Assembly (NCBI GenBank): GCA_044358425.1
Contig: CP054849.1
Coordinates: 556,577-576,794, forward strand
Source of the DNA: Marine Group I thaumarchaeote
GTDB lineage: Archaea; Thermoproteota; Nitrososphaeria; Nitrososphaerales; Nitrosopumilaceae
Length of the DNA: 20,218 bases
Reading direction: 5' to 3'
This document shows positions 4,794 to 19,999 of the stretch, piece by piece; positions within the stretch are counted from its first letter, which is position 1; each line of letters begins with the position of its first letter. Made by a program: the position numbers and the translations under genes. The notes beneath the pieces are model-generated. The model saw nothing but the letters and a program-made list of their open reading frames with translations, searched no databases and had not been told where the DNA came from.

Positions 4794-4794
4794 T

Positions 4795-5389: not shown

Positions 5390-5391
5390 GC

Positions 5392-5598: not shown

Positions 5599-5627
5599 AA
5601 ATTAAATTATTTATTCCAATGCATTTT

Positions 5628-7911: not shown

Positions 7912-8180
7912 TTATTCAGTTGTTTTGAAATTTTTGATATGATTTCTTGCTTTTTTTGTATTACTAAATTTTTCATCCCTGATTCTAGATGATGTATGCT
8001 GCTATTTTTTGATATTAGTAAATTTTCTAAGCGTATGTCAAATTGATTTTCTAGAAAATTTTTCATTTCTTCTCCACCATTAATTTCTAAATTGTCTAAT
8101 CCGTCTAATACTAAACTGTTAATTGATTTTTCTAAATATTGCAAAATATCATTTAATGTCTGTTCGTTTAAAACTGTCAT
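7908..8180 (-). CDS. Hypothetical protein
   Basis: 90-aa ORF 14 nt downstream of the parvulin gene, helical composition. Confidence 0.7.
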   Translation of the reverse strand: MTVLNEQTLNDILQYLEKSINSLVLDGLDNLEINGGEEMKNFLENQFDIRLENLLISKNSSIHHLESGMKNLVIQKKQEIISKISKQLNN

Positions 8181-8531: not shown

Positions 8532-8855
8532 TTAAGGGGTGACCTTCTCTAATTTTTCATGGATTTTGTCGTAATATCCATTTTGTTCCAATGCTGGAAC
8601 ATAAAATGTAGCAGATATTGTGTCACCCACTTTAGCTTGGCAGTTTTCTACAACTACTGAATGCCCTAGTGCTGATTCTCCTACACAGCCAATCTCAGTT
8701 ATTGCGATGACTTGTACATCCTCAGTAACTGATGTTGGGACAATGTTCCATGGTGTAATTGTAAGCACCAAGATTACTGCCGTAGCGATTGAAATTATTG
8801 CTAAGAATTTCAATACTGGTGGTTTTTGTTGTGTTGTCTGTTGCATTGTAACCAT
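8532..8855 (-). CDS. Membrane-anchored hypothetical protein with a small beta domain and two Cys
   Basis: N-terminal TM helix, beta-rich body; TATA box and operator motif upstream. Confidence 0.75.
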   Translation of the reverse strand: MVTMQQTTQQKPPVLKFLAIISIATAVILVLTITPWNIVPTSVTEDVQVIAITEIGCVGESALGHSVVVENCQAKVGDTISATFYVPALEQNGYYDKIHEKLEKVTP

Positions 8856-8902
8856 TTGTATTAGTACAACTTTTTATTTAAAATAGTGGTAAGTATTGAT
8901 TA

Positions 8903-8914
8903 TAGTGCTAAAAA
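8903..8914 (-). promoter_or_regulatory. Operator copy 1 (TAGTGCTAAaaa on +)
   Basis: Exact core, 48 nt from ATG 8855; TTAAATA on the minus strand at 8881-8875. Confidence 0.85.
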
Positions 8915-9041
8915 TCTGAACCATGCCAAAATTTTTTACAATTGTAACACTGTTTCTTCCAAATCACTAATCCCTCGGAATCCTTTTTCATTTCTATTAT
9001 GCCAAAATTTTTTGAACCACACGTGGGGCATCCGTCGTCAT

Positions 9042-9470
9042 TCAAAACTGAATTCCCTTCATGCGCTTTGAATAGTCATAATGAAATATTTTTTTTGGTG
9101 TAATTTCAATTGCAATTTCATTTTTTGAATGACTTAGTAGAAATTTTGATAATTTAGATTCTTTATCTCCTAGATATTTTTTAATTAAAATTTTCAATAT
9201 TTCTGGACCCTTGGATGGTATGATTTTAACAGTTCCTTCACCTCGTGAGCCTTTGTATGGGGGTTGATCTGCTGCTATTTCAAATCCACACGTGGGTTTA
9301 TTTTCCAAGTAATGAATAATTTTTGCAGTTTTTTGTGTTGCACAATAGATTTTTCCATTTATGTCAATATACCATAATGAAATAATTGATGGAGCTCCAT
9401 TGGGTTTGATGAATCCTATTCTAATTGGTATCTTTGTATCTGGGGCTAACTCTCTTTCTACGTATTGCAT
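9042..9470 (-). CDS. Pyridoxamine 5'-phosphate oxidase-like (FMN/F420 split-barrel) protein
   Basis: RIGFIKPNGAPSIISLWY...IYCATQKTAKIIHYLENKP...PYKG.RGEG...IEITPKKIFHYDY pattern; GAGGT SD-like element before the ATG. Confidence 0.8.
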   Translation of the reverse strand: MQYVERELAPDTKIPIRIGFIKPNGAPSIISLWYIDINGKIYCATQKTAKIIHYLENKPTCGFEIAADQPPYKGSRGEGTVKIIPSKGPEILKILIKKYLGDKESKLSKFLLSHSKNEIAIEITPKKIFHYDYSKRMKGIQF

Positions 9471-9539
9471 TTAATTACCTCGCTAAGCAACAGACACTTT
9501 AATTTTTTTTTGTATATGAATAATTTCTAATATTTCCTA

Positions 9540-9551
9540 TAGTGCTAACAA
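9540..9551. promoter_or_regulatory. Operator copy 2 (TAGTGCTAACAA), centred between divergent promoters
   Basis: About 20 nt from TTCATATA (minus, 9520) and from TTAAAATA (plus, 9571); 49 nt from ATG 9600. Confidence 0.85.
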
Positions 9552-9599
9552 TTTAGATTTCATGCTTTTGTTAAAATACTAATTTTTTAAGAAAATTGT

Positions 9600-10280
9600 A
9601 TGAAAAAATTATTTTTATTAGTTTTTGTTATAATGTTAATTTCTATATCTCCTGCATATGGTCATAAATTAATTAGCCATGATGACTCTCATCGTGATTT
9701 TGATTCTGCATTAGTAATACCTGATCATAAAATTTCATGGGCAATTTATGAGAATCTAGGCATGGAAGAATCCAAGTTTTATACTTTTGATGCAAAAAAA
9801 GGTGATTCGTTTTATGCAAGTATTGTAATTCCAAATCTTGAAGGATTGGAAAGATATTCTCCTTCATTAATTCTAATGAATGATGATTTGTATAAAGGAG
9901 ATGGACCTTCTGCAAATATAGAATCCAGTGTTCAAAAATTTCTTTATGAAGGAGATTATCCTGGAAATGAATTTTACGAACCTTTTGGTCAGGTGACTTA
10001 TTGGGAGAGACAGGAGGTTAATACAATTATTCCTGAAGATGGACAATATTTTATTTTAGTATTAGATGAGAAAAATCAAAGTGGAAAATATAGTTTAGCT
10101 ATTGGTACTATTGAGGATTTCTCTGGTGCTGATTTTTTTACTATACTACCTAAAGCTTGGTTTGATACAAGAATTTTTGTAAATGATTATGCTGGACTTG
10201 GTATTGGAATTTCCATACTTGTTGGAATTCCTGTCATGTTATCGTTAATAATTTTGAGAAATAAAATATTTAGAAGATAA
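9600..10280 (+). CDS. Secreted, C-terminally membrane-anchored hypothetical protein
   Basis: Signal peptide ending AYG, His-rich mature N-terminus HKLISHDDSH, C-terminal TM helix with a basic tail. Confidence 0.8.
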   Translation: MKKLFLLVFVIMLISISPAYGHKLISHDDSHRDFDSALVIPDHKISWAIYENLGMEESKFYTFDAKKGDSFYASIVIPNLEGLERYSPSLILMNDDLYKGDGPSANIESSVQKFLYEGDYPGNEFYEPFGQVTYWERQEVNTIIPEDGQYFILVLDEKNQSGKYSLAIGTIEDFSGADFFTILPKAWFDTRIFVNDYAGLGIGISILVGIPVMLSLIILRNKIFRR

Positions 10281-10307
10281 GAAATAATAAAATTATTTTA
10301 AAATATT

Positions 10308-10490
10308 CTATTTTTTCTTGCTTCTAGGTTTTGTTCTTAACACTGCTTTGCAACAAATACATCTGACATCTTCGGAATCTAGAAAAATACCACAAAATGT
10401 GCAACGCTTTTGTCCTATCTCATACCTGATTTTATTAGGTACTGATTCAGCTTCATGTCTTTTGCATATGTTTCTACAAGTTCTACCCAA
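10308..10490 (-). CDS. Small Cys-rich (zinc-finger-like) basic protein
   Basis: CxxxC, CxxC and CICC, then LRTKPR; TTG start overlaps the tfb stop by 8 nt. Confidence 0.75.
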   Translation of the reverse strand: MGRTCRNICKRHEAESVPNKIRYEIGQKRCTFCGIFLDSEDVRCICCKAVLRTKPRSKKK

Positions 10491-11394
10491 CTTTTACATC
10501 TCCTATCTTGTTGACAATTTCTTTTCTTCTTTCTCTTATGGTCACAGCACTAATTCCTGATATTTTGGATATTTTTAGCTGTGATACTTTTTCAGCATTT
10601 GTTGTTGCGGCTAGATGTATTGCAGCTGCTGCCATAGCCATTGGATTTTTACTTGTGGATACGTGCTTTTTTGCACACATATCAAGTATTTTGAAGCTAA
10701 GTCTTTGTGTTTTTTCTGACAAAGTTAATCCCTTTGCGATTCTGGTGACAAATTCTGATGGTGTGTATGACTCAGGTGATATGTCCATCTCTTTTGCAAG
10801 GAATCTATATGTTCTTTGTAGAACTTTTTTCTTAATGTTTGCTGCATCAGAAATATCTTGTAGTGTTCTAGGTGTATCTGTAATTCTACATGTTGCATAA
10901 ATTGTAGCAGATAACATAGCTGCTGTTGATCTTCCTGCAAGTATTTTTCTTGCTGCAATTTTTCTAAACAAATATGCACTTTCTTCTACTACTGATTCAG
11001 GCAGACCTAGCTTTGAACTTATTGCATCAAGTAAAGTGAATGCTTTTTGAAATGATTTTGATGTCACAGCTGAGCGACTGTTTCTGTCCCACATTCTTAG
11101 TCTGTAAAACATTCGTCTGTTTTCTACTGACAGTGATTTGCCTGTCACGTCCTTATCTTTAGCTTCAATTAATGTAGACAGTCCCATGTCTATCATCTTC
11201 AAAGATCTTTTTGCTCCAACTCTTGAATTATTTTGATAATCTGCTGAACTTCCTCCTGACATTTCAGCACCTAAATCAATAATTGGTTCTGATGATACTA
11301 TTCCGCAGTTACTACATGCAATCTCCCCAGTATGTATGTCTGTAACTATTTCATGTTTCTTACAATTTTTTTGATGTACTAATTCAGTTAACAT
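10483..11394 (-). CDS. tfb: Transcription initiation factor B (TFB paralogue)
   Basis: Zn ribbon IVTDIHTGEIACSNCGIV, GLST, RLRMW, cyclin repeats with GRS...IYATCR...PRTL and ISAVTIRER. Confidence 0.95.
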   Translation of the reverse strand: MLTELVHQKNCKKHEIVTDIHTGEIACSNCGIVSSEPIIDLGAEMSGGSSADYQNNSRVGAKRSLKMIDMGLSTLIEAKDKDVTGKSLSVENRRMFYRLRMWDRNSRSAVTSKSFQKAFTLLDAISSKLGLPESVVEESAYLFRKIAARKILAGRSTAAMLSATIYATCRITDTPRTLQDISDAANIKKKVLQRTYRFLAKEMDISPESYTPSEFVTRIAKGLTLSEKTQRLSFKILDMCAKKHVSTSKNPMAMAAAAIHLAATTNAEKVSQLKISKISGISAVTIRERRKEIVNKIGDVKVG

Positions 11395-11442
11395 GATAAC
11401 TTTATGCTTTCATTTTATATAACAAATCAAAAAATTTTTTAC

Positions 11443-11454
11443 TAGTGCTAATAT
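11443..11454 (-). promoter_or_regulatory. Operator copy 3 (tfb promoter)
   Basis: TAGTGCTAA at 11443-11451, 49 nt from ATG 11394; TTATATA on the minus strand at 11422-11416. Confidence 0.88.
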
Positions 11455-11505
11455 CTCTAGTCATTAAAAATTATTTTCTACCTTTACCACTAGGAAATTG
11501 TGTTT

Positions 11506-11517
11506 TAGTTAGCACTA
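11506..11517 (+). promoter_or_regulatory. Operator copy 4 (TAGTTAGCACTA)
   Basis: Full consensus, 49 nt before ATG 11566; variant TTACCACTA at 11484-11492. Confidence 0.88.
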
Positions 11518-11565
11518 TTTACAAATTATTTTTGTATTTTTATCCAATGAATTTAACAGAAATTT

Positions 11566-11928
11566 ATGCCACATATTGTGTTGGATCGACAAATCAACCT
11601 CTTTGATTTCTCAATTTTGTTTAAACCATTATTTCAAAAATCTCCATTAATCAAAATTCATAAAATGTATGTTGATTCTGAAGGCTCTAATGCATTATTT
11701 TCAACAGTTGTAATAGATGATTCTCATCATGAATTCTTTATTCAAGTAATGACAAGTGATGAAAGAACTACAATTAGATTGCTCCCTATAACTGATCCAA
11801 AAAAGACTGATGCTGTAAAACAATCGTTAGCAAATTTATGTTTAGAAATACAAAGATATTATCCTGATATGAGAGTTATAAAATCAAATTTATGGGACTA
11901 CTTGAAAATCCCTATAACAAATGAGTAA
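11566..11928 (+). CDS. Hypothetical protein
   Basis: 120-aa ORF overlapping the next gene by 8 nt; no family recognised. Confidence 0.75.
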   Translation: MPHIVLDRQINLFDFSILFKPLFQKSPLIKIHKMYVDSEGSNALFSTVVIDDSHHEFFIQVMTSDERTTIRLLPITDPKKTDAVKQSLANLCLEIQRYYPDMRVIKSNLWDYLKIPITNE

Positions 11929-12367
11929 ATTCAATCTTGTTAAAAAAAGTAATCTTCATCGTGATTTAATTTTTAAAATTAGTACAGATGTTGAAAACTT
12001 TCATAACGTTATGCCTGAATATTTCAAATCATTAAAAATTATTCAAAATTCCTCAAATGAAAAAATAGTTTTAGAATCTATAGATTTTCTTGGTAGAAAA
12101 ATAGAAATTAAAACAAAACATGTGATTATTCCACCAAATTTACATGAGGTATTCATTTTAAATGGTCCTGCAAAAGGTACTTCTTTTATTGAAAAATACG
12201 AATCTAACCCAACTGGTACTGATATTTCTATCTCTGTTGATTTGAAATTAAATGGATTTTTAAAATTAATTCCATTCCTGAAATTATTATTGTTTAAGAA
12301 AATGAATTCGGTAATGTCTGAGTTTATTGTATGTGCTGAATCCTATTCAAAGTCTGTTTCAAAATAG
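11921..12367 (+). CDS. SRPBCC / START-like (polyketide cyclase family) protein
   Basis: 148 aa; IFKISTDVENFHNVMPEYFKS, ILNGPAKG, GTDISISVDL and a C-terminal helix. Confidence 0.75.
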   Translation: MSKFNLVKKSNLHRDLIFKISTDVENFHNVMPEYFKSLKIIQNSSNEKIVLESIDFLGRKIEIKTKHVIIPPNLHEVFILNGPAKGTSFIEKYESNPTGTDISISVDLKLNGFLKLIPFLKLLLFKKMNSVMSEFIVCAESYSKSVSK

Positions 12368-12376
12368 TTAGCACTA
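12365..12376 (+). promoter_or_regulatory. Operator copy 5 (AATAGT-TAGC-ACTATT when extended)
   Basis: Full consensus with 6-bp perfect arms (12363-12378); TTAAATA at 12397; ATG at 12425, 49 nt away. Overlaps the upstream stop codon. Confidence 0.9.
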
Positions 12377-12424
12377 TTAAATTAAGTTAGTCTCTATTAA
12401 ATAGAAAAATTATTGATTTTAGCC

Positions 12425-13771
12425 ATGAGTCCTCCAACCATTGTTATTGGTGCAGGCGTGGGTGGCTTGACTACTGGTGCTATTTTGGCAGAAAAAGGTC
12501 ATAGTGTGATGATTTTAGAAAAATCTTCAAAACTAGGTGGAAGAACTGCTGCAATGGAATACAAAAACCATATTTTGGATAATGGTTTTCACATAATGCC
12601 TTTTTACAAAAAATCAGCAATTTTTACAATTATGAAGAATTTGGGAATTGAATCTCGTTTGAAGCTTGCAAAAGTTGATGATATTGCATTTTATGCTGAA
12701 ACTGGTTTTCATATATATCCAAAAGGAATGGGTGATCTGTTAAAATTATCATTAATCCCATTTAAGAGCAGAATTAGACTTCTAAAACTATTATTGCCTT
12801 TAGCATTTTCATCTATGGAAAAAACAGAATCCTGGGATGATGTACCTTTGACTAAAATTACACATGATTTAGATGCTGACACAAATGCATTTTTTGAAGC
12901 AGTATGTATGTTAGCTTTTGCAGATACAGCTGATCATATTTCTTTAGGTGAATTTGCCAGAACCATTATTAGAGCAAATCCGTTTAAAGGTGGAACAAGT
13001 GAATTTGCTTATCCAGATGGAGGTGGCTATGATTCCATCTGTAAGGTTCTTGGTGAATATATTTTAGAAAAAAATGGTGATATTCAGACAAAACAATCTG
13101 TAAAAAAAGTCATTGTAGAAAATTCTAAGGTTACTGGAGTTATTGTAAAGGATTCTTCAAATTCAGAAAAACTTATTCCAACAAATTCTGTAGTGATTTC
13201 CTATCCTGCTTATACTGCATTGAATCAACTATTTGATGAAGATGTAATTGACAGAAAATTTGTTCAAAAAATTGATAAATTGAATAAGACTACTTCTGTA
13301 GTTGAAGTTCATTTTGCATTAAATTCTCAAATTGATACTCGTCAGGTAGTTTTTCCTGTTGGTGATAACTATGTCACAAAAGGTATTTTTTTCATATCTA
13401 ATATCACTCCCTCTGTATCTCCTAAAGGTGAGCATTTGATCATTGCAGGAACTCCTGTATTGCCTTCTGAAACTGAGGATTCTGAAAAAATTAAAAGTAT
13501 TGTGAGTAAAATGAAACAAGAAATATCGTCAATCTACCCGAAATTTGATTCTTCATTATTGTGGGAACGTCCAATGGCCTGGAAATTAGTTGAATCTGTA
13601 GTAAAGGAACCTGGAAAAGTTTGGAAATCAAAAATGCCTCATCAGATACCTGGAATTGATGGCTTATTTTTTGTGGGTGATTCAACTATTAGTTATGGAA
13701 TTGGAACTGACTCTGCTGCACACAGTTCTATTTTGTGTACTCCAAAAATTGAATCTTTTTTAAATTCCTAG
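12425..13771 (+). CDS. FAD-dependent oxidoreductase, phytoene dehydrogenase / amine oxidase superfamily
   Basis: VIGAGVGGL...ILEKSSKLGGR...LDNGFH; YPDGG; C-terminal IDGLFFVGD. Start placed at ATG 12425. Substrate unknown. Confidence 0.88.
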   Translation: MSPPTIVIGAGVGGLTTGAILAEKGHSVMILEKSSKLGGRTAAMEYKNHILDNGFHIMPFYKKSAIFTIMKNLGIESRLKLAKVDDIAFYAETGFHIYPKGMGDLLKLSLIPFKSRIRLLKLLLPLAFSSMEKTESWDDVPLTKITHDLDADTNAFFEAVCMLAFADTADHISLGEFARTIIRANPFKGGTSEFAYPDGGGYDSICKVLGEYILEKNGDIQTKQSVKKVIVENSKVTGVIVKDSSNSEKLIPTNSVVISYPAYTALNQLFDEDVIDRKFVQKIDKLNKTTSVVEVHFALNSQIDTRQVVFPVGDNYVTKGIFFISNITPSVSPKGEHLIIAGTPVLPSETEDSEKIKSIVSKMKQEISSIYPKFDSSLLWERPMAWKLVESVVKEPGKVWKSKMPHQIPGIDGLFFVGDSTISYGIGTDSAAHSSILCTPKIESFLNS

Positions 13772-14622
13772 TTAGTTAATGGTATTTTTCTAATAATTTT
13801 TGGAATCTCTTCTAAACTCATATCGCCTACCACATTACCCTCAAATTTTGGTGGGTTGTCTTGTTGTAATGCATATCCTCCGATTAAAATTGGTGTTTTA
13901 CAATGTTCTCTAATTTTTTTTGCTAGTCTTTGTCCTGCAGATACGTTATCTTCAATTGTTATTGAAATTAAAATTACATCTGGTTTTTTCATATTGATAA
14001 ATTCGATAATTGAGTCTGTTGGAATGGATGTTCCCATATTGAAAACTTTGAAACCTTTTATTGTAAGATATGTTTCCAACACATCACATCCCATGTGGTG
14101 CTCCTCTCCAACTGGTACGCATAACATTACTTTCTTTTTATTTCCTGTACCTGACACTTGATCCATGATAATTTTTACTAAGGTTTGTGCTACATTACTG
14201 GCAACATGTTCTGTTGCAATTGCTAATTTACCATTTTCCCAGTCTGAACCTATTTTGCTCATTACAGGTCTTAGAATCTTGTCAAAAAAGTCTGGTACAT
14301 TAAATATGTCCACGTAATTTTTATAAATTTTAATACACTCATCCAGGTTACCATCTGTCAATTTTTTAAATAATTGTTGTTTTGATTTTTTTGTCGCATC
14401 TTCTCTTTTTTTTATGTCTTCTGGATTATATGATGCCAAAACTGATAGGATTTTGGGATCATTTCTGAATTCTTCTGGAATGTCATCTTTTATTACTTCT
14501 GATGCTTTTCCTAGATATTTGACAATCTCCTGTTTTGATGTGCTCTTTTTTGAATCCCAGACACTTTTTACTAAATAGAGATATTGATCTGATTTGACTT
14601 TTTTAGCCCTAATGTAGACCAT
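13768..14622 (-). CDS. Cobalamin-binding regulator, CarH/LitR-like sensor domain with an atypical N-terminal domain
   Basis: W-ENGKLAIAT-EH (Wx9EH), GEEHHMG (ExHxxG), Rossmann tail ISIT...ILIGG. Start reassigned to MVYIRAKK (14622) because a TATA box and the motif occupy 14643-14682. Confidence 0.88.
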   Translation of the reverse strand: MVYIRAKKVKSDQYLYLVKSVWDSKKSTSKQEIVKYLGKASEVIKDDIPEEFRNDPKILSVLASYNPEDIKKREDATKKSKQQLFKKLTDGNLDECIKIYKNYVDIFNVPDFFDKILRPVMSKIGSDWENGKLAIATEHVASNVAQTLVKIIMDQVSGTGNKKKVMLCVPVGEEHHMGCDVLETYLTIKGFKVFNMGTSIPTDSIIEFINMKKPDVILISITIEDNVSAGQRLAKKIREHCKTPILIGGYALQQDNPPKFEGNVVGDMSLEEIPKIIRKIPLTN

Positions 14623-14670
14623 TAAAATTCCTAATTTTTTCGATATATAACTAATGGTAATCATGACTAC

Positions 14671-14682
14671 TAGTGCCAATCT
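14671..14682 (-). promoter_or_regulatory. Operator copy 6 (one mismatch, TAGTGCCAA), promoter of the B12-binding regulator
   Basis: 49 nt from ATG 14622; TTATATAT on the minus strand at 14650-14643. Confidence 0.8.
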
Positions 14683-14696
14683 CTTCTAAATTTAAT

Positions 14697-14708
14697 TTCT
14701 TAGCACTA
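14697..14708 (+). promoter_or_regulatory. Operator copy 7
   Basis: TTAGCACTA at 14700-14708; TTAAATA at 14729; ATG at 14757, 49 nt away. Confidence 0.88.
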
Positions 14709-14756
14709 GTACGAACTTGTGTTTTCGGTTAAATATCATAAATCAAAAATATTTTC

Positions 14757-14954
14757 ATGGCAGGAACAGAAGAACAAGAATGGGCTAACCTTCTTGCAGA
14801 AATCTTTGACAAACTTACACAAAAACACGCCGCAATTACTTATGAGTTTGACAATCTAGAAATGGCTGGTAAGATTATGAAAGATAAGCAAGTTGTCCCA
14901 ACTGGTACAGTTTCCCTAAGTGGAAAACTAACCATTACAGCAAAAGAAAAATAG
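14757..14954 (+). CDS. Small hypothetical protein
   Basis: 65 aa, first gene of a tightly packed three-gene operon. Confidence 0.8.
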   Translation: MAGTEEQEWANLLAEIFDKLTQKHAAITYEFDNLEMAGKIMKDKQVVPTGTVSLSGKLTITAKEK

Positions 14955-14955
14955 A

Positions 14956-15333
14956 GTGTGGTTGACAATGAAAGATTTTGATCTACCCGCCAATTTTTTA
15001 TCTTATCTAGATAAAGGTAAATTAAGCATCACATGCAATGATGAACCTACGATTAATTTTCGTGTTGAAGGAAGTACAAAAATTATAGATGTAATTGATA
15101 TTCCAATTAAAATAAATAAAATGCCTGGATTTCTAAAACAGCTTTCTGAAGCAAAAGAACTTGCAAAAGATTTGGCAAAGAAAAAAACAACTATTGAAGT
15201 ACGTTTGAAAGGTGATACTGTATTGAAACTAGGTGAAAAAGCAAATCCAAAATTAGCAAAAATTGTAACACGAAGTAGTGATATTGAAATCACTGACATA
15301 AGAAAATTGAAAAAATTGAGTGATGTATTTTAA
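14956..15333 (+). CDS. Hypothetical basic protein (start may be ATG 14968)
   Basis: ORF fills the gap between its neighbours with 1-2 nt spacing. Confidence 0.75.
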   Translation: MWLTMKDFDLPANFLSYLDKGKLSITCNDEPTINFRVEGSTKIIDVIDIPIKINKMPGFLKQLSEAKELAKDLAKKKTTIEVRLKGDTVLKLGEKANPKLAKIVTRSSDIEITDIRKLKKLSDVF

Positions 15334-15335
15334 AA

Positions 15336-16763
15336 ATGTCTGAACTTTCTACACAAACTAAACCCTACGATATTTTAGTTACTGGTGCAAGTGGTTTTAT
15401 TGGAAAAAAACTACTTAATCAATTAACTAATTCTGGATTTACTGTAACTGCAATGTCCAGATCAAAATACCCTGATTCAGAGAAAATCAAGCGTGTACAG
15501 GCTGATGCATTTGATGTTGATTCTTTAACTAAAGCTACTGAGGGAATTACAACTGCATTTTACTTACTTCATTCTATGGAAGGCTCAAAAAAGGAATGGG
15601 GTGAATTTGCAAATAGGGAAAAACAGCAGGCTCAAAATTTTCTTAAAGCTGCAACTGCATCTGGCGTAAAGAGAATCATATATCTCGGTGGATTAGTCAA
15701 CGAAGGTCTAGAATTATCAAAACATATGAAAAGTAGGCATGATGTGGGCAAGATTTTGGCAAGTGGAAATATTCCTGTCACTGAATTAAGAGCATCTGTT
15801 ATTGTTGGAGCTGAAGGTGGTTCTTATGCCATGCTTAGATATCTTGTTGAAAGATTACCTTTGATGGTTTGTCCAAAATGGGTTAAATCACAAACACAAC
15901 CAATTGCAGTTGAAAATGTTGTGGATTATTTGATAGGTTCGATGAAAAATCCAGAAACTACAGGAAAAATTTTAGAAATTGGTGGACCTGATATCATGAC
16001 ATATGAACAACTAATGAGATTATACTCTTCCATTCTCAATAGAAATCTAACCGTAATTCAGATTCCATTTTTGACCCCTAGACTTTCTTCTTATTGGATT
16101 GATTTAGTTACTCCAGTTAAAGCCTCTCTAGCAAGACCTCTAGTTGATAGTTTAGTACATGATTCTGTAGTTAAAGATGATACAGCACAAAAATTGATTC
16201 CAATTCAATTGGCACACATGACTCAAGCAATTCAAACTGCTAGAGAAGAAGCAAAAGTTTTCAACTCCATTTCTAAATCAGAGGGAGAAAAAACTTCGTA
16301 TAAAATGAATCAACAAATTCTTCTAATTACTTTATGTGCCATGGCTTTCATTGGTACAACATACTATTGGTTGGATGATCGAAGTGATGTTTGGCAGATT
16401 ACTTGGATAGTTGGTTCCGTAATTTGGTATGCTTCAATTTTATTTGCTATTTCATTTGTGAGACAAAAAGCCAGGTTGGGTTATTTGATAGGTGGAATTT
16501 TGGCTTGGGTTACTCTGGCATTTTGGTTATTTGATAACTTTCATGTTGTATTTGAGCTCTCATTGGTCGCATCTGAACCTAGTTTGGAAATTACAATTAG
16601 AAATTTCATTGGTGCAGCAATTGCTGGATTGGCTATATTCTCCTCACATAATGTATTTCATAAAGTACGAGTTTACCAAGCCCGAGGAAAACCTGTATCT
16701 GAATCTGCCTCTTCAGAGGTGCCTGAAGGTGCTAGACCGGTTTATAATACTGACTTTTCATAA
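15336..16763 (+). CDS. YbjT-like atypical SDR / NAD(P)-dependent epimerase fused to a four-TM C-terminal domain
   Basis: ILVTGASGFIG, YLLHSM, IIYLGGL, LSKHMKSR, TQPIA, TPRLSSYW; about four hydrophobic helices after residue 325. Confidence 0.85.
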   Translation: MSELSTQTKPYDILVTGASGFIGKKLLNQLTNSGFTVTAMSRSKYPDSEKIKRVQADAFDVDSLTKATEGITTAFYLLHSMEGSKKEWGEFANREKQQAQNFLKAATASGVKRIIYLGGLVNEGLELSKHMKSRHDVGKILASGNIPVTELRASVIVGAEGGSYAMLRYLVERLPLMVCPKWVKSQTQPIAVENVVDYLIGSMKNPETTGKILEIGGPDIMTYEQLMRLYSSILNRNLTVIQIPFLTPRLSSYWIDLVTPVKASLARPLVDSLVHDSVVKDDTAQKLIPIQLAHMTQAIQTAREEAKVFNSISKSEGEKTSYKMNQQILLITLCAMAFIGTTYYWLDDRSDVWQITWIVGSVIWYASILFAISFVRQKARLGYLIGGILAWVTLAFWLFDNFHVVFELSLVASEPSLEITIRNFIGAAIAGLAIFSSHNVFHKVRVYQARGKPVSESASSEVPEGARPVYNTDFS

Positions 16764-16775
16764 TTGAATGATTTT

Positions 16776-16877
16776 TTAATTATTTCTACACTCAATACAT
16801 AATTTGGTATTTTTCATTATATTACATGCACAAATTTTATGACAATTTTCACATTGCAACATTCTCACACCGAACAT
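16776..16877 (-). CDS. Putative 33-aa Cys-rich microprotein
   Basis: Manual translation: MFGVRMLQCENCHKICACNIMKNTKLCIECRNN. TTATAAT on the minus strand 30 nt upstream. Confidence 0.55.
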   Translation of the reverse strand: MFGVRMLQCENCHKICACNIMKNTKLCIECRNN

Positions 16878-16977
16878 ATGAAATTTAATTTAATGAATTA
16901 ATTATAAGCATAGGTTTTATTCTAAGTTTTTATTCTAACTTTGTATTTATTCTATTAATATTTTCAAAATGATTTGT

Positions 16978-17499
16978 TTATTTTTGATTTTCTAAAATTT
17001 TGAATATATTTCCATTTGCTGGATTAGAATATAGTAGAAAGTATGTTTGTCCGGCAAGATATGTTTTATTAAATCTGAATACTATTGGATGAATTTCTGC
17101 AAGGATTTCTCCGACTGTGATTGTTTCATTTTTATAATTTTTTAATAAATCAAAAAATTTGTCTCTTTCTAGATGAGTAAACTCCTTGGAAAAAAAACCA
17201 AAAATATGCATTATTACGTTGCTATGTGTTTTGATTGTAGGTTTAAACTGTAAACATAAACTGAGATTTTTTTCATACTCTACTAACATTTCTGAAAATT
17301 TTACTTTTTTATTACTGGCCACAATCCTGCCTAATACTTTGAGTTCTTCTTGATTGTGAGCCATAATCAAAAACTTATTCATTGCTTGAAATTCAACTAA
17401 TTCCTTTATTTTGTTACTTTTTTTTACGTTTTGAAATCTTTCTAGAACAAATTCTTTGATTTCTTTTTGAGTTAACACTTTGTGATAGTTTTGCATCAT
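16978..17499 (-). CDS. YbgA family (DUF1722) protein, stand-alone
   Basis: NKFLIMAHNQ...LGRIVA...THSNVIMHIFGFFSK...YLAGQTYF matches the DUF1722 pattern as I recall it. Confidence 0.8.
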   Translation of the reverse strand: MMQNYHKVLTQKEIKEFVLERFQNVKKSNKIKELVEFQAMNKFLIMAHNQEELKVLGRIVASNKKVKFSEMLVEYEKNLSLCLQFKPTIKTHSNVIMHIFGFFSKEFTHLERDKFFDLLKNYKNETITVGEILAEIHPIVFRFNKTYLAGQTYFLLYSNPANGNIFKILENQK

Positions 17500-17580
17500 G
17501 ATTTCATCCTTTTATTTCCGTAGATTGACATACACGATGATCGATTATAATTTGCATATAAACAACTCCTAGTCGATTAG

Positions 17581-17592
17581 TTGTTAGCACTA
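17581..17592. promoter_or_regulatory. Operator copy 8 (TTGTTAGCACTA)
   Basis: About 20 nt from minus-strand TTTATATG (17562-17555) leading to the ybgA-like gene. Confidence 0.83.
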
Positions 17593-17604
17593 TATTTTTT
17601 GAAA

Positions 17605-17616
17605 ATATTAGCACTA
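17605..17616 (+). promoter_or_regulatory. Operator copy 9
   Basis: TTAGCACTA at 17608-17616; TTAAATA at 17637; ATG at 17666, 50 nt away. Confidence 0.88.
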
Positions 17617-17665
17617 GAAAATGATTTGGCACCATTTTAAATATAATTAGTGAAATTTGTTTATA

Positions 17666-18613
17666 ATGAAAACTCTCATGACTGCAATTTCAACAATTGC
17701 CGTATTGCTGCTTGTTGGCTCAAGTGTATCATCAGTTTACGCTGATGTTCCAGCTTGGGTTAAGAACAATGCAGGCTGGTGGGCAGAAGGAACGATTGAT
17801 GACGATTCATTTGTTCAAGGAATTCAATTCTTGATCAAAGAAAAAATCATGGAAATTCCTCCAACCACACAAGGAGTAAGTTCTAGTAATGAAATCCCAT
17901 CCTGGATTAAAAACAATGCAGGCTGGTGGGCAGAAGGAACGATTGATGACGATTCATTTGTTCAAGGAATTCAATTCTTGATCAAAGAAGGAATCATGAA
18001 AGTATTACCTGAGCAAGCTAGTGATGTAGCAAAAGCTGCTACTGAAAAGGCATTTGCTAAAAAGGAACAAAAATCCATATCATCAAGCGATGACCCTGTA
18101 ATTGCTTCTCTTGAAGCTGAATTAGAGAAATGTTCAGAAATAGTCAAAGCATACAAGAGACTTGATTGTGAAAAACCAATTAAACAAGAAATTCTTGTTC
18201 ATACATACAAAACTGGCGCTGAATTAATGCAAGTAGGACCAATTAATTATTATTGGTTTGGTGTAAATTCTGAGGGTAATAGCTTTGAAATTAGTCCTAC
18301 AGGACAACCAATTTTGAATATCAGAATGTTGGCCGATAACACTTCTTCAGATATTGTTAGTTTGAATTGTACAAGTCCTTCAATTTGTAACTATGATGTT
18401 TGGGACGGTTCAAAATCCTTCAAATATTCTGGAATGGACTTTACTAGTGGACAAATCAATCTAAACCCTGGAACTGCTAAGGAGTTCAATATTTTGTTTG
18501 GTCCAAATATTGGATATGGTGGAACTGAATTTGAATATGATCCTTCAAAGACATATACTTTCAGAATCAATGAACCATTTGGTAGTATGGATGTTCACCT
18601 AGACTTAGAATAA
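17666..18613 (+). CDS. Secreted protein with two 'PxWxKNNAGWW' modules and a Cys-containing C-terminal beta domain
   Basis: Signal peptide ending VYA; two modules; C-terminal domain paralogous to the next gene. Confidence 0.85.
   Translation: MKTLMTAISTIAVLLLVGSSVSSVYADVPAWVKNNAGWWAEGTIDDDSFVQGIQFLIKEKIMEIPPTTQGVSSSNEIPSWIKNNAGWWAEGTIDDDSFVQGIQFLIKEGIMKVLPEQASDVAKAATEKAFAKKEQKSISSSDDPVIASLEAELEKCSEIVKAYKRLDCEKPIKQEILVHTYKTGAELMQVGPINYYWFGVNSEGNSFEISPTGQPILNIRMLADNTSSDIVSLNCTSPSICNYDVWDGSKSFKYSGMDFTSGQINLNPGTAKEFNILFGPNIGYGGTEFEYDPSKTYTFRINEPFGSMDVHLDLE
17765..17989 (+). repeat. Exact 78-bp intragenic direct repeat (17765-17842 and 17912-17989)
   Basis: aacaatgcaggctggtgggcagaaggaacg...ttgatcaaagaa occurs twice, period 147. 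Confidence 0.9.
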
Positions 18614-18616
18614 GAC

Positions 18617-18658
18617 TTCTTTTTCTTATTTTTATTTTATTTTTATTTTATTTTTATT
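18617..18658 (+). terminator. Oligo-T archaeal terminator-like tract, (T4-5A)n
   Basis: Immediately follows the stop at 18613. Confidence 0.55.
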
Positions 18659-18670
18659 TAGTTAGCACTA
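18659..18670 (+). promoter_or_regulatory. Operator copy 10 (TAGTTAGCACTA)
   Basis: Full consensus; TTATATA at 18691; ATG at 18719, 49 nt away. Confidence 0.9.
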
Positions 18671-18718
18671 TTGATTACTAGTTCTATTTTTTATATAATT
18701 AAAAAAGTAAAAAATTTC

Positions 18719-19999
18719 ATGAATCTTTTATTTTTGATCATCCCTTTACTCGTTTTTTCAATTCCAATGGTTTTTGCTGAATCCTCTAACGTTGGTACTA
18801 TGTATTGGAAGCAAGAAATCATTTCACCAAATTCGTTTGTTGATATCTATGTAAATGATAATGATATGAATAAAAAAGAATATCCAAATTTTGCTGATAA
18901 ATTTATGATATCTATATGGTCTGATTCTTCTCCAAATGGTCTTGAAATCCAAGTTGTAGAGACAGGAGTTTACAGTGGTATTTTCAAAGGTCGTGTGTTT
19001 GTTGCTGATTCTGGTGAGACCGTAAAAAATAGACTGGTTTCAATGCCTGGTGATACTGTATATGCAAAATATGTTGATTTTACAATGCCAGATGGCTCGA
19101 CATCTGAAATATTCTCAGCTGCAGTTGTAAAAATATCTGGTCAAAATATGCAGCCATTACTTGACAATATAGATTCAAAATACCGCATGTCTTCATCTAT
19201 TGAAAAAGTTCCATCATGGATTAAAAATAATGCAGGCTGGTGGGCAAATGATGACATTGATGATGATGCTTTCATTCAAGGTATTCAGTTTTTAATTAAA
19301 GAAAAGATTCTTGAAATAAATGAAACCTCATCTACAGAAAAAAGTGATAAAATTCCTGCTTGGGTAAAAAATAATGCAGGCTGGTGGGCAGAAGGCCAAA
19401 TCACTGAATCTGATTTTCTTAGTGGGATTACACATCTTGTAAAAACTGGAATAATTTCTGTTAGTGATGATTCTGTTGAATTAGTTTCTGATGATGTCGA
19501 TCCTTTACTGGCTGAATGTCAATCGATTAAATCTACATACAAGCGACTAAATTGTGAAAAGGAAATAAAACAAAATCTTGAATTTATAGAATTTAAAAAA
19601 TCTTCAAATGAATACGGTGTAGGTCCAATCACTTACTATTATCCTGGAATTGGAAATTTTGGAAATGAGTTTGAAATCAGTTCTTCTGGTCAAGCTATGT
19701 TGAGATTAAGAATTTTAGCTGAAAATACCGGCAATGAAGTAATTTCATTAAAGTGTACAGGTCCATCTATCTGTAGTTATGATGTTTGGGATGGTTCAAA
19801 GGCATTCAAATATGCTGGCATGGATTTTGTGTCTGGTCAAATCCCAATAAATCCTGGAACCTCTGTTATTTTTAACATGATGTTTGGTCCGAATATTGGA
19901 TATGGTGGAAATCAATTTGAATATGATTCTTCAAAGAATTATACTTTTAGAGTTAATGAAAACTTTGGAAGCATTGAAATTCCATTAAAAATTGAATGA
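18719..19999 (+). CDS. Secreted protein with an S-layer-type Ig-like domain, two NNAGWW modules and the shared C-terminal domain
   Basis: Signal peptide ending VFA; VNDNDMN...ETGVYSGIFKG...GDTVYAKYVD. Start reassigned to ATG 18719. Confidence 0.85.
   Translation: MNLLFLIIPLLVFSIPMVFAESSNVGTMYWKQEIISPNSFVDIYVNDNDMNKKEYPNFADKFMISIWSDSSPNGLEIQVVETGVYSGIFKGRVFVADSGETVKNRLVSMPGDTVYAKYVDFTMPDGSTSEIFSAAVVKISGQNMQPLLDNIDSKYRMSSSIEKVPSWIKNNAGWWANDDIDDDAFIQGIQFLIKEKILEINETSSTEKSDKIPAWVKNNAGWWAEGQITESDFLSGITHLVKTGIISVSDDSVELVSDDVDPLLAECQSIKSTYKRLNCEKEIKQNLEFIEFKKSSNEYGVGPITYYYPGIGNFGNEFEISSSGQAMLRLRILAENTGNEVISLKCTGPSICSYDVWDGSKAFKYAGMDFVSGQIPINPGTSVIFNMMFGPNIGYGGNQFEYDSSKNYTFRVNENFGSIEIPLKIE

Follow-up and report, generated by a model that had tools for sequence, protein, structure and literature searches.

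A repeated promoter word and a cobalamin-binding protein that look like a light-sensing gene switch in a marine ammonia-oxidising archaeon

Results

A nine-base word recurs before the promoters of one gene cluster

Which protein reads a short word that stands repeatedly in front of the promoters of one gene cluster in a Marine Group I thaumarchaeote (Nitrosopumilaceae), and to which signal would it respond? We analysed a 20,218-nt stretch of contig CP054849.1 (GCA_044358425.1, positions 556,577-576,794), hereafter the window. The word TTAGCACTA was derived by reading the intergenic regions of the window. Nine exact copies were found in its 20,218 bases against 0.38 expected (the largest count in a shuffle was 3, and 0 of 100 shuffles reached 9), all of them intergenic and spanning 8903 to 18670, which confirmed an earlier note on this DNA in its claim that one motif is repeated before the promoters of the cluster. 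One-mismatch copies were also present, namely TTGGCACTA at 14671-14679 (-) and TTACCACTA at 8884 (-) and 11484 (+). A genome-wide scan of the 1.36-Mb genome gave 25 exact copies of TTAGCACTA, 9 of them within about 10 kb. The features of the cluster are as follows.

8532-8855, minus: g107, ORF for a small protein, no Pfam or NCBIfam family
8884-8892, minus: proximal TTACCACTA of the g107 promoter, against the TATA box
8903-8911, minus: distal motif copy of the g107 promoter, exact TTAGCACTA
9042-9470, minus: g142, weakly PNPOx/F420-PPOX (flavin split-barrel)-like (NCBIfam TIGR03618 7.8e-5, below cut-off; Pfam PNPOx_N 0.025)
9540-9548, minus: motif copy in the g142/g226 divergent region, pointing to g142
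9600-10280, plus: g226, no family; shares the region 9471-9599
10483-11394, minus: transcription factor B (TFB) paralogue, 303 aa (Pfam TFIIB repeat 3.6e-33; Zn ribbon 26.6 bits, below the cut-off of 29)
11443-11451, minus: motif copy, TFB paralogue promoter
11509-11517, plus: motif copy, g120-g148 operon promoter, with an extra TTACCACTA at 11484-11492
11566-12367, plus: ORFs g120 (11566-11928) and g148 (11921-12367), no family assigned from Pfam and NCBIfam
12368-12376, plus: motif copy, promoter of the amine-oxidase-like gene
12425-13771, plus: FAD amine-oxidase/phytoene-desaturase-like oxidoreductase (Pfam Amino_oxidase 6.5e-28); start reassigned to the ATG at 12425, 48 nt past the motif
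13768-14622, minus: B12R, 284-aa candidate regulator (translation, Pfam, structure model, Foldseek, signature residues)
14652-14660, minus: proximal degenerate copy TTACCATTA of the B12R promoter, abutting the TATA box at the BRE position
14671-14679, minus: distal motif copy TTGGCACTA of the B12R promoter, ATG 48 nt downstream
14700-14708, plus: motif copy, g65-g125-SDR operon promoter
14757-16763, plus: operon of g65 (14757-14954), g125 (14956-15333) and a 475-aa NAD(P)-binding SDR/NmrA-like protein (15336-16763; Pfam NAD_binding_10 3.3e-14, NmrA 3e-12); g65 and g125 without a Pfam or NCBIfam match
16978-17499, minus: stand-alone DUF1722 (YbgA-like) gene, divergent from g318 (Pfam DUF1722 1.6e-30)
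17584-17634, plus: three direct copies before g318, TTAGCACTA at 17584, TTAGCACTA at 17608 and TTGGCACCA at 17626-17634 against the TATA box
17666-18613, plus: g318, signal-peptide-like secreted or surface protein; start reassigned to the ATG at 17666
18662-18670, plus: motif copy, g426 promoter
18719-19999, plus: g426, g318 paralogue with a stretch like an S-layer glycoprotein (NCBIfam NF052345 5.8e-8, far below cut-off)

The region 8532-19999 holds eleven transcription units, and the motif had been placed before eleven consecutive promoters. This held for nine of the eleven, each preceded by a copy that points the same way as the unit (g107, g142, TFB, g120-g148, the amine-oxidase-like gene, B12R with TTGGCACTA, g65-g125-SDR, g318 and g426). 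The two others, g226 (9600) and the DUF1722 gene (17499), have no own-orientation copy and only share divergent intergenic regions holding copies that point the other way. An SRPBCC protein, also named among the products, was not recovered; the small ORFs matched no family in Pfam or NCBIfam. Marine metatranscriptomes show that the cluster is transcribed: matching contigs (≥95% identity, mostly ≥99%) cover it in 4 runs of 3 studies, a contig-level observation with no bearing on light; several genes of the proposed regulon showed very high contig depth, the highest being that of g318.

A repeated word of this kind could be a by-product that no dedicated regulator reads, left by promoter duplication, a mobile repeat or chance. 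The genes g318 and g426 are tandem paralogues that match the same genes in relatives, so one pair of copies could come from duplication, but the flanking sequences of the copies in the window are unrelated and the shuffled windows never reached the observed count.

The word holds a fixed position in leaderless promoters and is conserved in relatives

Each site has the same layout, with about 20 nt between the end of the motif and a TATA-like box. The distance from the motif end to the first ATG is 47-49 nt in eight of the nine window promoters and 69 nt in g142, and at least ten sites outside the window share the motif-TATA-ATG frame. This fixed geometry implies leaderless promoters. Strong TATA boxes of the genome in general peak 28-30 nt before the ATG; generic promoters of the genome showed no GCACTA, and the regulated promoters do not carry the A-rich BRE of the generic kind. 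The copy that is best conserved spans about -57 to -49 (centre about -53), and a weaker second copy overlaps the BRE, being recognisable with at most 2 mismatches in 2 of the 8 promoters of this genome caught by our ORF rule. A position around -53 is typical of archaeal upstream sites, and more so of activator sites. Since only the weaker copy sits on the BRE, the label 'operator' that had been given to the motif is kept provisionally: the BRE-overlapping copy speaks for it, and the upstream position of the best copy does not.

We then compared the promoter of B12R itself in 20 relatives (61-74% protein identity). The arrangement TTAGCACTA-N10-TTAGCATTAG-TTAWATA is kept while the flanks have diverged; a copy stands at the distal position in all 20 relatives' promoters shown, and the proximal copy is kept as TTAGCATTAG immediately before TTAWATA, on the BRE. 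The sites in relatives are direct repeats of 9-bp words about 19-21 bp apart. This conserved footprint suggests that B12R is autoregulated. In distant genera (L037-L041), the motif stays with B12R in regions that have no TFB nearby.

These features bear on the sign of the regulation. B12R bound at -57 to -49 could act under the same signal as an activator that recruits TFB/TBP, with a secondary or autoregulatory role for the BRE copy. Several points fit: the distal copy is the exact one in this genome and keeps a precise 20-nt phase to the TATA box, 6 of the 8 promoters analysed have a weak proximal copy or none, promoters lacking the generic A-rich BRE may need help, and the very high contig depth of several regulon genes would suit strong activated promoters. 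However, the proximal copy of relatives is well conserved against the TATA box, most clearly in B12R's own promoter, all AdoCbl photoreceptor regulators characterised in the accounts of PMC9304148 and PMC9758184 are dark-state DNA-bound oligomers and repressors, and activation in the dark state would turn photolyase on in the dark. We therefore treat activation as a possible but doubtful reading.

B12R joins a photoreceptor-like cobalamin module to an unclassified N-terminal domain

B12R begins with a basic three-stranded beta domain (residues 1 to about 55), continues with a four-helix bundle carrying Wx9EH and ends in a Rossmann cobalamin-binding module. Pfam assigned B12-binding_2 (41.2 bits, cut-off 23) and B12-binding (43.6 bits, cut-off 32.1). 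The Wx9EH/ExHxxG cobalamin-binding protein noticed earlier in the middle of the cluster is indeed the product of 13768-14622, in which the signature residues were all found, as G125xxW128-x9-E138H139 and E173xH175xxG178-x41-S220xT222-x25-G248G249 (spacings counted from residue positions). Wx9EH plus ExHx2G-x41-SxT-x25-GG is the photoreceptor definition as given in PMC9304148, which B12R matches, and GxxW, EH, GxxH and GxxxP, named as light-responsive signatures in PMC11796333, are all four present. Among 42 diverse homologues, the Trp is kept in 37, the Glu in 39, H139 in 38, H175 in 41 and P201 in 38. The structure model (pLDDT 95.1) was searched against the PDB with Foldseek, and the 24 matches listed for this predicted fold were all B12 photoreceptors (photocobilin 3.2e-13, CarH, LitR and CtMerR). 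In a profile search of PDB sequences, photocobilin (1.3e-25), CtMerR and CarH (1.9e-21) ranked above MetH (7.2e-20). The NCBIfam CarH model reached 55 bits (cut-off 400), and its match was confined to residues 79-254. By its sequence, the cobalamin domain of B12R thus matches the published photoreceptor signatures.

The description of B12R as a CarH-like sensor held for this cobalamin domain, by signatures and nearest structures, but not for the DNA-binding end, where a beta-sheet domain replaces MerR. A MerR helix-turn-helix was ruled out by Pfam, NCBIfam, the structure model and fold searches, which left an unclassified basic three-stranded beta domain. This domain stands where CarH has its DNA-binding domain, and residues 1-45 have a pI of 9.9. 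Comparison with known DNA-binding folds gave no match (best VIA Z 4.7, to a ribosomal protein; PC4-like Z 3.1; best Foldseek E 0.5). A sequence search with the N-terminal domain returned 123 of 1.84 billion representatives at E≤0.001; 42 of the 123 are full-length (253-316 aa) and aligned as one family (A1), and the remaining 81 are mostly shorter, plus one 1077-aa protein (P0213). The N-terminal 55 or so residues, as far as the 42 aligned of the 123 matches tell, appear only in the B12R family. We infer that it is this domain that reads TTRGCACTA.

The motif accompanies B12R across the family

We asked how the motif is distributed over 201 family genomes, 90 with B12R and 111 without, using the strict pattern TAGCACTA-N18-21-TWWAWAW and the reversed pattern as control. 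The mean per genome was 2.16 with B12R (n=90) and 0.26 without (n=111), while the control gave 0.69 and 0.78, so the motif is much rarer in genomes lacking the regulator; equal frequency in the two sets would have counted against the earlier note. At least two sites were found in 44 of 90 genomes with B12R against 3 of 111 without it. Within genera, the means with and without B12R were 3.55 and 0.17 (g1), 4.89 and 0.43 (g17), 3.40 and 0.33 (g22) and 4.2 and 0.5 (g4). The word is thus down to control level in genomes without B12R, and it is held at the same promoter position across genera whose flanks have diverged; with these points against it, a mere by-product is very improbable.

The strict pattern was absent from 23 of the 90 B12R genomes, including all 10 of genus g18. 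Motif drift accounts for at least part of these: the B12R region of G162 (L012) has TTGGCACTA and one TTAGCACCA, with no exact TTAGCACTA among the screened variants, and that of G065 (L039) has copies of TTAGCACCA, TAGGCACTA and TTGGCACCA and one exact TTAGCACTA before g318, outside the strict TATA pattern.

Another factor might read the motif, for example the TFB paralogue through an alternative BRE, or another regulator, and B12R would then merely be a regulon member, acting for instance as a sensor by protein-protein contact or as a corrinoid carrier. The motif lies in the TFB paralogue's own promoter, the proximal copy is exactly at the BRE position, and B12R's N-terminal domain matched no recognised DNA-binding fold. 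Moreover, genomes with B12R and the TFB orthologue had a mean of 4.65 strict-pattern sites against 1.14 for B12R alone, so co-occurrence cannot fully separate B12R from co-travelling genes. On the other hand, TFB cannot account for the stronger copy, which lies 20 bp upstream of the BRE; 19 of the 64 B12R genomes without a TFB orthologue (E≤1e-100) keep at least two sites; four such genomes of g17 (G064, G082, G099 and G190) have 3-4 sites each against 0.43 in B12R-negative members; the two genomes with the TFB orthologue and no B12R have only 0 and 1; and the distant genera described above keep the motif with B12R. We consider it unlikely that B12R is a bystander of this kind.

Further sites include a photolyase operon

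The earlier note had predicted that a genome-wide motif scan would hit photolyase genes, and a promoter with TTGGCACTA and a TATA box was found at the head of an operon of a 186-aa gene and photolyase, 4 kb from the B12R paralogue B12R2, beside which lie two further TTGGCACTA promoters. A gene for a RudS-like (tRNA desulfidase) TudS+DUF1722 protein has an exact motif and TATA promoter, a peroxiredoxin gene has a motif and TATA site with a one-mismatch copy in front, and the regulon also takes in DICT-like small proteins. The second photolyase paralogue of this genome has no motif, nor have its orthologues in genus g24. B12R2 no longer carries the Trp or the Glu-His of Wx9EH. Photolyase occurs in 28 of the 201 genomes and B12R in 26 of these 28, against 64 of the 173 photolyase-free genomes; the two genes adjoin or share an operon in several genera (e.g. 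L037). G091 (99% complete) gave no B12R match but does encode photolyase and the TFB orthologue.

These targets bear on the signal, which could be cobalamin supply or redox state, as the earlier note had allowed, with B12R still binding the motif. A CarH-type protein needs AdoCbl for DNA binding and so would also report B12 status, and the regulon includes peroxiredoxin and flavoproteins. Ammonia-oxidising archaea synthesise B12. Against this, no cobalamin synthesis, transport or B12-isozyme gene lies behind the motif and TATA sites inspected in the genome, and 26 of the 28 photolyase-bearing genomes have B12R. As described in PMC9758184, the light-induced LitR cluster of Pseudomonas comprises SDR, FAD-oxidoreductase and photolyase genes, and according to PMC11417400 RudS strips UVA-sensitive s4U from tRNA and is encoded in light operons with LitR and photolyase, so that photolyase, RudS-like protein, SDR and FAD-oxidoreductase together correspond to the light set of bacterial LitR clusters. 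The Wx9EH cap, described as distinguishing photoreceptors from B12-independent CarA, is also conserved in B12R. Cobalamin supply or redox state in place of light is therefore quite unlikely as the signal.

Discussion

We think it probable that B12R is a CarH-like AdoCbl- and light-controlled transcription regulator with a new DNA-binding domain, which represses the motif promoters in the dark. Its C-terminal two-thirds would be an AdoCbl photoreceptor module of the CarH/photocobilin type. The sequence data show the motif and its geometry, its confinement to genomes with B12R, the cofactor signatures, the fold and the gene content; we infer that the N-terminal domain binds DNA, that AdoCbl is the ligand and light the signal, and that B12R represses rather than activates. 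The photolyase-operon site, the co-occurrence of 2.16 against 0.26, the photoreceptor signatures and the nearest structures support the reading of an archaeal B12-photoreceptor regulon put forward in the earlier note. TTRGCACTA marks about 20 leaderless promoters from about -57 to -49, 20 nt upstream of the TATA box, and at many of them, and in most relatives, a weaker second copy lies about 20 bp downstream, on the BRE against the TATA box. In the dark, as in the CarH model, AdoCbl-bound B12R may oligomerise and bind cooperatively to the strong distal copy and the weak proximal one, and an oligomer on both copies would block access of TFB/TBP. Light would break the Co-C bond, whereupon the oligomer would disassemble, free the weak BRE-overlapping copy and allow the regulon to be transcribed.

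CarH/LitR of Thermus, Myxococcus and Bacillus are similar in several respects. They share the Wx9EH four-helix bundle and the ExHx2G-x41-SxT-x25-GG Rossmann module as published, are among the best structural matches of the B12R model, have the (here putative) DNA-binding part N-terminal to the cobalamin module, and use direct-repeat sites with one over a core promoter element, in regulons that include the autoregulated gene, photolyase and photoprotection genes. Unlike them, B12R has its three-stranded beta domain instead of a MerR winged-helix, and the archaeal system has 9-bp words about 19-21 bp apart rather than tandem 11-bp repeats, BRE/TATA promoters, leaderless mRNAs and no carotenoid genes. 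Photocobilins (SignatureFinder, PMC11796333) ranked first both by sequence (8j2x, 1.3e-25) and by fold (8j2w, 3.2e-13), and B12R has the four signatures of the photocobilin-type proteins described there; it has no biliverdin-binding or enzymatic output domain. MEDS and DICT, reported in that paper as domains found with such cobalamin modules, are encoded here as neighbouring or co-regulated genes. The main text of PMC11796333 does not contain 'archae', 'Nitroso' or 'Thaumarch', and its supplements and network may include the B12R family. The Trp loss of B12R2 parallels that described for CarA, the B12-independent CarH paralogue of Myxococcus, but B12R2 arose by an independent archaeal duplication and has lost the EH that CarA retains. 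The Class II LitR regulon of Pseudomonas, as described, shares the set of photolyase, short-chain dehydrogenase, FAD-dependent oxidoreductase and TudS-DUF1722/RudS genes, and differs in its operator and in having a bacterial MerR regulator that works with LOV proteins as partners; its targets include no archaeal general transcription factor.

The proposed regulon would comprise B12R, the TFB paralogue, the FAD amine-oxidase-like protein, the SDR, DUF1722, the RudS-like protein, the photolyase operon, peroxiredoxin, DICT-like and surface proteins, a gene content that together suggests a UV and photo-oxidative damage response. With about 20 motif promoters, a photoreceptor-like B12 protein and photolyase genes among the targets, the system looks like a gene switch that senses light, apparently the first to be proposed for marine ammonia-oxidising archaea.

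A promoter word shared across the cluster

In this gene-dense window of 30% G+C, the 9-mer TTAGCACTA, which we recognised on reading the sequence between the genes from 8.5 to 19 kb, occurs nine times as an exact copy, compared with a mean of 0.38 and a maximum of 3 in shuffled sequences. All nine copies are intergenic (8903-18670), and each is oriented toward its downstream gene. Genome-wide, over 1.357 Mb in one contig with 202,863 bases masked, there are 25 exact copies, more than one third of which lie within these 10 kb. Copies with one mismatch were found at the following positions:

14671-14679, (-), TTGGCACTA, preceding the gene of the cobalamin-binding protein (B12R, the candidate regulator)
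8884, (-), TTACCACTA
11484, (+), TTACCACTA

The earlier note had placed the word before 11 consecutive promoters. The region 8532-19999 indeed holds 11 transcription units and nine of them carry a copy in their own orientation, while two, the window gene g226 and the stand-alone DUF1722 gene, have none of their own and face divergent regions with copies pointing the opposite way. A TATA-like box (TTWAWATA) lies about 20 nt downstream of each copy, and the first ATG follows 47-49 nt past the motif end in eight of nine window promoters; from this spacing, the likely start of the amine-oxidase-like gene was moved to 12425 and that of g318 to 17666. Across the genome, the distance from a strong TATA octamer to the ATG is most often 28-30 nt, indicating that leaderless transcripts are common in this genome, and the word accordingly occupies approximately -57 to -49. 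Nothing resembling GCACTA was seen upstream of the TATA box in the generic promoters of the genome.

In relatives the sites are clearly bipartite, with TAGCACTAG, a gap of 10-11 nt and TTAGCAYYAG, directly followed by TTAAATAT, so that the second, proximal copy spans the BRE position. In this genome, proximal copies can be recognised in some promoters:

8884, TTACCACTA
17626, TTGGCACCA
14652, TTACCATTA

By the ORF rule, a proximal copy with at most two mismatches was present in two of eight promoters versus 4 of 265 generic ones, and it was weak in the remaining six. Set beside the CarH/LitR operator, whose tandem direct repeats have a period of 11 bp and overlap a core promoter element, the sites give a mixed picture: direct repeats occur and the proximal one overlaps the BRE, but the period is about 19-21 bp and the proximal copy is mostly weak here. 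The sequence directly upstream of the copy at 18662 (18614-18661, repeated TTTTATTTTA units) is an A/T tract repeating about every 10-11 nt, and may be intrinsically bent; contigs of one metatranscriptome run are cut at this tract.

A CarH-type sensor module on an unclassified domain

Translation of B12R (13768-14622, (-)) from the ATG at 14622 gives 284 residues, in which Pfam identified B12-binding_2 and B12-binding above their cut-offs (B12-binding, 43.6 bits against 32.1) and no family for the first ~100 residues. The protein carries G125xxW128, E138H139, G172xxH175 and G197xxxP201, i.e. all four elements (GxxW, EH, GxxH and GxxxP, at the equivalents of TtCarH 128-177+) of the light-responsive cobalamin-domain signature given by SignatureFinder (PMC11796333). 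Across 42 diverse homologues Trp128 is kept in 37, Glu138 in 39, His139 in 38, His175 in 41 and Pro201 in 38, with the G of GxxxP being variable (G in 9 of 42). CarH has been defined by Wx9EH together with D/ExHx2G/P-x41-SxT/V-x22-27-GG, according to the definition given in PMC9304148. B12R has an intact W128-x9-E138-H139, as in the adenosyl-capping four-helix bundle of CarH, and its Rossmann module has E173-x-H175-xx-G178, S220-x-T222 and G248-G249 at spacings of 41 and 25, as in the His-on form; its ligand would be AdoCbl.

The AlphaFold model, built on the alignment of 42 homologues, had a mean pLDDT of 95.1, and all 24 rows among the Foldseek matches listed from PDB were B12 photoreceptors, including photocobilin (8j2w, 3.2e-13), CarH (5c8d), LitR (3whp) and CtMerR (8jbs). 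In a profile search of PDB sequences, these same photoreceptors ranked over methionine synthase and methyltransferase corrinoid proteins. B12R is named 'methanogenic corrinoid protein MtbC1' in some JGI entries and 'cobalamin-dependent protein' in one NCBI entry. As a methyltransferase corrinoid protein it scored below the cut-offs (TIGR02370, 53.5 vs 215.3 bits; MtbC, 43 vs 350; MtaC, 42.3 vs 420), and Pfam found no methyltransferase family among the window genes. A complex prediction with two B12R copies scored 0.00, giving no verdict for or against oligomerisation. The regulator gene and the amine-oxidase-like gene are convergent and overlap by 4 nt (13768-13771), and metatranscriptome contigs span both.

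In the model, the N-terminal domain consists of three long beta strands (residues 2-9, 12-23 and 28-39) and short helices after them. Residues 1-45 have a basic pI of 9.9, and R5, K7, Y14, Y16, V18, W22, Q31, Y36, L37, G38 and P49 are near-invariant; this domain would be the DNA-binding part. Neither a MerR-type winged-helix domain with its RxWERRY recognition helix nor any MerR or HTH family of Pfam was found in B12R. When residues 1-100 were searched against 1.84 billion representatives, only 123 proteins matched at E<=0.001; of these, 42 full-length sequences (253-316 aa), aligned as A1, belong to the same family as B12R, a statement that covers 42 of the 123, the other 81 being mostly shorter and one of 1077 aa (P0213). 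Modelled alone, the domain had a pLDDT of 82.5. The best VIA-align match among 48,161 chains was a ribosomal PSRP-3-like protein (Z 4.7), with PC4, Sub1 and Pur-alpha at Z 2.5-3.1; Foldseek against PDB gave a best E of 0.5, and the best ESM Atlas score was 0.81, to unnamed clusters. These weak matches allow no family to be named for the domain and are not in themselves proof of a new fold.

The earlier note had called the protein CarH-like. This holds for the sensor, with its Wx9EH and Rossmann signature, but not for the whole protein, which has no MerR domain and reached only 55 bits against a cut-off of 400 with its best NCBIfam model, CarH (NF052513), over residues 79-254. Given the sensor signatures and the differing N-terminus, B12R is a CarH-type sensor module on an unclassified domain, outside the MerR-type CarH/LitR family.

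Genes behind the word inside and outside the window

Within the window, the cluster encodes, besides an SDR and a FAD amine-oxidase-like enzyme (Pfam), a transcription factor B (TFB) paralogue (10483-11394, (-)), which has TFIIB repeats in two stretches (3.6e-33) and a Zn ribbon just below the cut-off (26.6 bits against 29). The SRPBCC assignment of the earlier note, which concerns a small ORF, is supported by neither Pfam nor NCBIfam. The genes g318 (17666-18613) and g426 (18719-19999) are tandem paralogues with signal-peptide-like N-termini, both matched by a single gene in relatives; a short stretch of g426 resembles an S-layer glycoprotein model, far under its cut-off. The stretches 5011-5627 and 5931-6405 are unusually long without an ORF of at least 100 aa; the ORFs in them are all short, and some encode hydrophobic products.

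We scanned the genome for the word with at most one mismatch and a TATA box at the right distance, and found further promoters of this kind, again with the ATG 48-50 nt downstream. Of these, the set at 808-819 kb (locus L024) is the most informative; three TTGGCACTA promoters there drive the following genes:

TTGGCACTA promoter: a 133-aa gene
TTGGCACTA promoter: a 186-aa gene, then the CPD photolyase gene
TTGGCACTA promoter: a 183-aa gene, then a 450-aa gene

The photolyase (L024:4499-5842) has both DNA_photolyase (4.7e-37) and FAD_binding_7 (7e-82) domains, and its operon bears out the earlier expectation that a genome-wide scan would lead to photolyase. Directly after these motif-fronted genes come a paralogue of the regulator and, next to it, a gene for a MEDS-domain protein:

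G000:C1:815951-816814 (L024:7951-8814), (-), B12R2, 34% identical to B12R over the full length

B12R2 still has the lower-axial His as well as the beta domain at its N-terminus, and it has lost the Trp and Glu-His of Wx9EH, a loss similar to that in B12-independent CarA. The idea that TTAGCACTA is specific for B12R and TTGGCACTA for B12R2 was rejected, since both A and G are found at position 3 in relatives that have only one regulator.

Another motif-fronted gene (G000 609925-610893) encodes a 322-aa protein with TudS (PF04463, 9.2e-33) and DUF1722 (PF08349, 8.5e-16), which by its predicted domains is of the RudS architecture. As described in PMC11417400, RudS strips photosensitive 4-thiouridine from tRNA and shortens the UVA growth delay, and its genes are located in LitR/photolyase light operons. 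An AhpC/TSA peroxiredoxin gene is fronted by a one-mismatch copy, and several small proteins without a known family are also motif-fronted. Three paralogues of about 185 aa lie behind motif-plus-TATA promoters:

G000:C1:247004-247570, (-)
G000:C1:811919-812479, (+)
G000:C1:813909-814460, (+)

The photolyase operon begins with one of these genes. The three have no Pfam family; DICT (PF10069) occurs on 17-28% of members of their nearest ESM Atlas clusters, which is a lead only. SDR, FAD amine-oxidase-like enzyme and photolyase together are a gene set also of the light-induced Pseudomonas LitR cluster, which contains SDR, FAD-oxidoreductase and photolyase (as described in PMC9758184), and light may likewise be the signal here.

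No motif precedes a second photolyase paralogue (G000:C1:495862-497208, 495.9 kb; 45% identity to the first). Upstream of it and of its orthologues in the genus g24 (L044, L047 and L048), another element, CAAGGGTTTTAATTT, is conserved, suggesting that these genes are under separate control.

Coupling of the word to the regulator across the family

We found the regulator in 90 of 201 sampled family genomes (72 of 144 high-quality ones); G077, G092 and G093 contribute to the tallies over the 201 and to nothing else. Counts of the bare 9-mer were discarded as too noisy, with a background of about 10 per genome, and the pattern TAGCACTA-N18-21-TWWAWAW was counted instead in the same genomes, the table being transcribed by hand. 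The co-occurrence of motif and regulator anticipated earlier was evident in these counts, with the reversed pattern as the control; as the genomes are related and not independent, the contrasts are descriptive and not tests.

Table. Pattern matches in genomes with and without the regulator (means per genome unless stated; contrasts descriptive)
All genomes: with regulator (n=90) 2.16; without (n=111) 0.26
Reversed-pattern control: with 0.69; without 0.78
Genomes with at least 2 matches: with 44/90; without 3/111
Genus g1: with 3.55; without 0.17
Genus g17: with 4.89; without 0.43
Genus g22: with 3.40; without 0.33
Genus g4: with 4.2; without 0.5
Genus g20: with 1.33; without 0.0
Genus g15: with 2.0; without 0.11

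One genome, G044, had 26 matches to the reversed control versus 0-5 elsewhere, and probably contains a repeat family that includes the control string. No pattern match was found in 23 of the 90 regulator-positive genomes, including all ten of genus g18, and motif drift accounts for at least part of these. The B12R region of G162 (L012) has TTGGCACTA and one TTAGCACCA, with no exact TTAGCACTA among the variants screened; that of G065 (L039) has TTAGCACCA, TAGGCACTA and TTGGCACCA copies and one exact TTAGCACTA before g318, which misses the strict TATA pattern.

At the 20 closest loci the sequence flanking the regulator's own promoter has diverged, yet the two copies and the TATA box are retained in register. 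Across twelve 20-kb regions from eight genera the gene order around the regulator is shuffled, and the TFB paralogue, the window genes g120/g148, the amine oxidase, SDR, DUF1722, g318 and photolyase recur near it, each behind a motif copy. The photolyase gene follows DUF1722 in G172 and directly follows the regulator in G020. Photolyase was found in 28 of the 201 genomes, 26 of which have the regulator, compared with 64 of the 173 without photolyase. Photolyase promoters at unlinked loci gave a mixed result: TTGGCACTA lies 221-225 nt upstream in G027 and G051, TTACCACTA lies 112 nt upstream in G142 and a copy lies 551 nt upstream in G189, while the upstream region in G091 and the promoters in three g24 genomes have no motif, the g24 genes being orthologues of the motif-less second paralogue. 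The genome G091 (99% complete; contigs C69 and C89) encodes a photolyase of 68% identity and a TFB orthologue of 57%, with one bipartite site just past the TFB gene; the regulator was not found there with this query, and its gene could have been lost, fall in an assembly gap or be too divergent.

Which protein reads the word

Besides B12R, the cluster encodes one obvious DNA-binding protein, the TFB paralogue, which is a candidate reader of the motif. Its orthologue (E<=1e-100) is present in 28 of the 201 genomes, 26 of which also have the regulator, and genomes with both have more sites than those with the regulator alone (4.65 vs 1.14), a difference confounded by closeness to the reference genome. 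However, 19 of the 64 genomes with the regulator and no TFB orthologue still have at least 2 strict-pattern sites, four g17 genomes (G064, G082, G099 and G190) have 3-4 sites each without the orthologue, and the two genomes with the orthologue and no regulator have 0 and 1 site. Moreover, TFB is unable to explain why the stronger copy lies two helical turns further upstream than the BRE. We consider it more likely than not that B12R itself reads the word and responds to AdoCbl and light.

A CarH-like switch is the best-supported mechanism. In the dark, AdoCbl-bound B12R oligomers would span the strong distal copy and the weak proximal one, blocking access to the BRE/TATA; in the light, photolysis of AdoCbl would release them. 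Regulation would then be repressive, to which an activator acting from -53 is a serious alternative. With repression by B12R as the preferred reading, we tentatively propose, at somewhat less than even confidence, a new class of photoreceptor transcription factor, in which an AdoCbl light module joined to a lineage-specific, new-fold beta DNA-binding domain gates the BRE/TATA at ~20 leaderless promoters and stands above a dedicated TFB paralogue, so that light might rewire part of the basal transcription machinery.

Presence of the cluster in RNA libraries

Contigs of at least 95% identity (most at least 99%) over the cluster were found in four RNA libraries from three studies. Summed contig depth was in the hundreds to thousands over g107/g142, TFB, g65, SDR and g318 and 0-15 over window positions 1-8000, and for several regulon genes it was two to three orders of magnitude above that of the flanking polymerase and helicase genes. 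Since the cluster itself served as the query by which the runs were picked, and since contig depth does not allow genes to be ranked, these data speak for the presence of the cluster in RNA libraries, and not on start sites or light.

Meaning for ammonia-oxidising archaea

Where in the upper ocean nitrification takes place depends in part on the photoinhibition of marine ammonia oxidisers and their recovery from it. To our knowledge, neither a light sensor nor a regulon under light control has been described in ammonia-oxidising archaea, and our literature searches returned no paper that connects them with a B12 photoreceptor, CarH or LitR. We rate B12R as a known sensor module with a new candidate DNA-binding domain, in a new domain of life and an archaeal promoter architecture. 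The main text of SignatureFinder (PMC11796333) contains neither 'archae' nor 'Nitroso', and its supplements or network might list the B12R family.

The system provides a candidate sensor, its DNA word, ~20 target promoters (including those of photolyase, a tRNA-s4U desulfidase, a peroxiredoxin and the TFB paralogue) and natural contrasts of presence and absence, with the regulator in 90 of 201 genomes. If the proposal is true, B12-based photoreception would reach into Archaea, one more DNA-binding fold would become known, and a compact green-light switch would be available for archaeal and eukaryote-like promoters; ammonia-oxidising archaea would then truly sense light, and this sense would shape both their photoinhibition behaviour and their distribution over depth.
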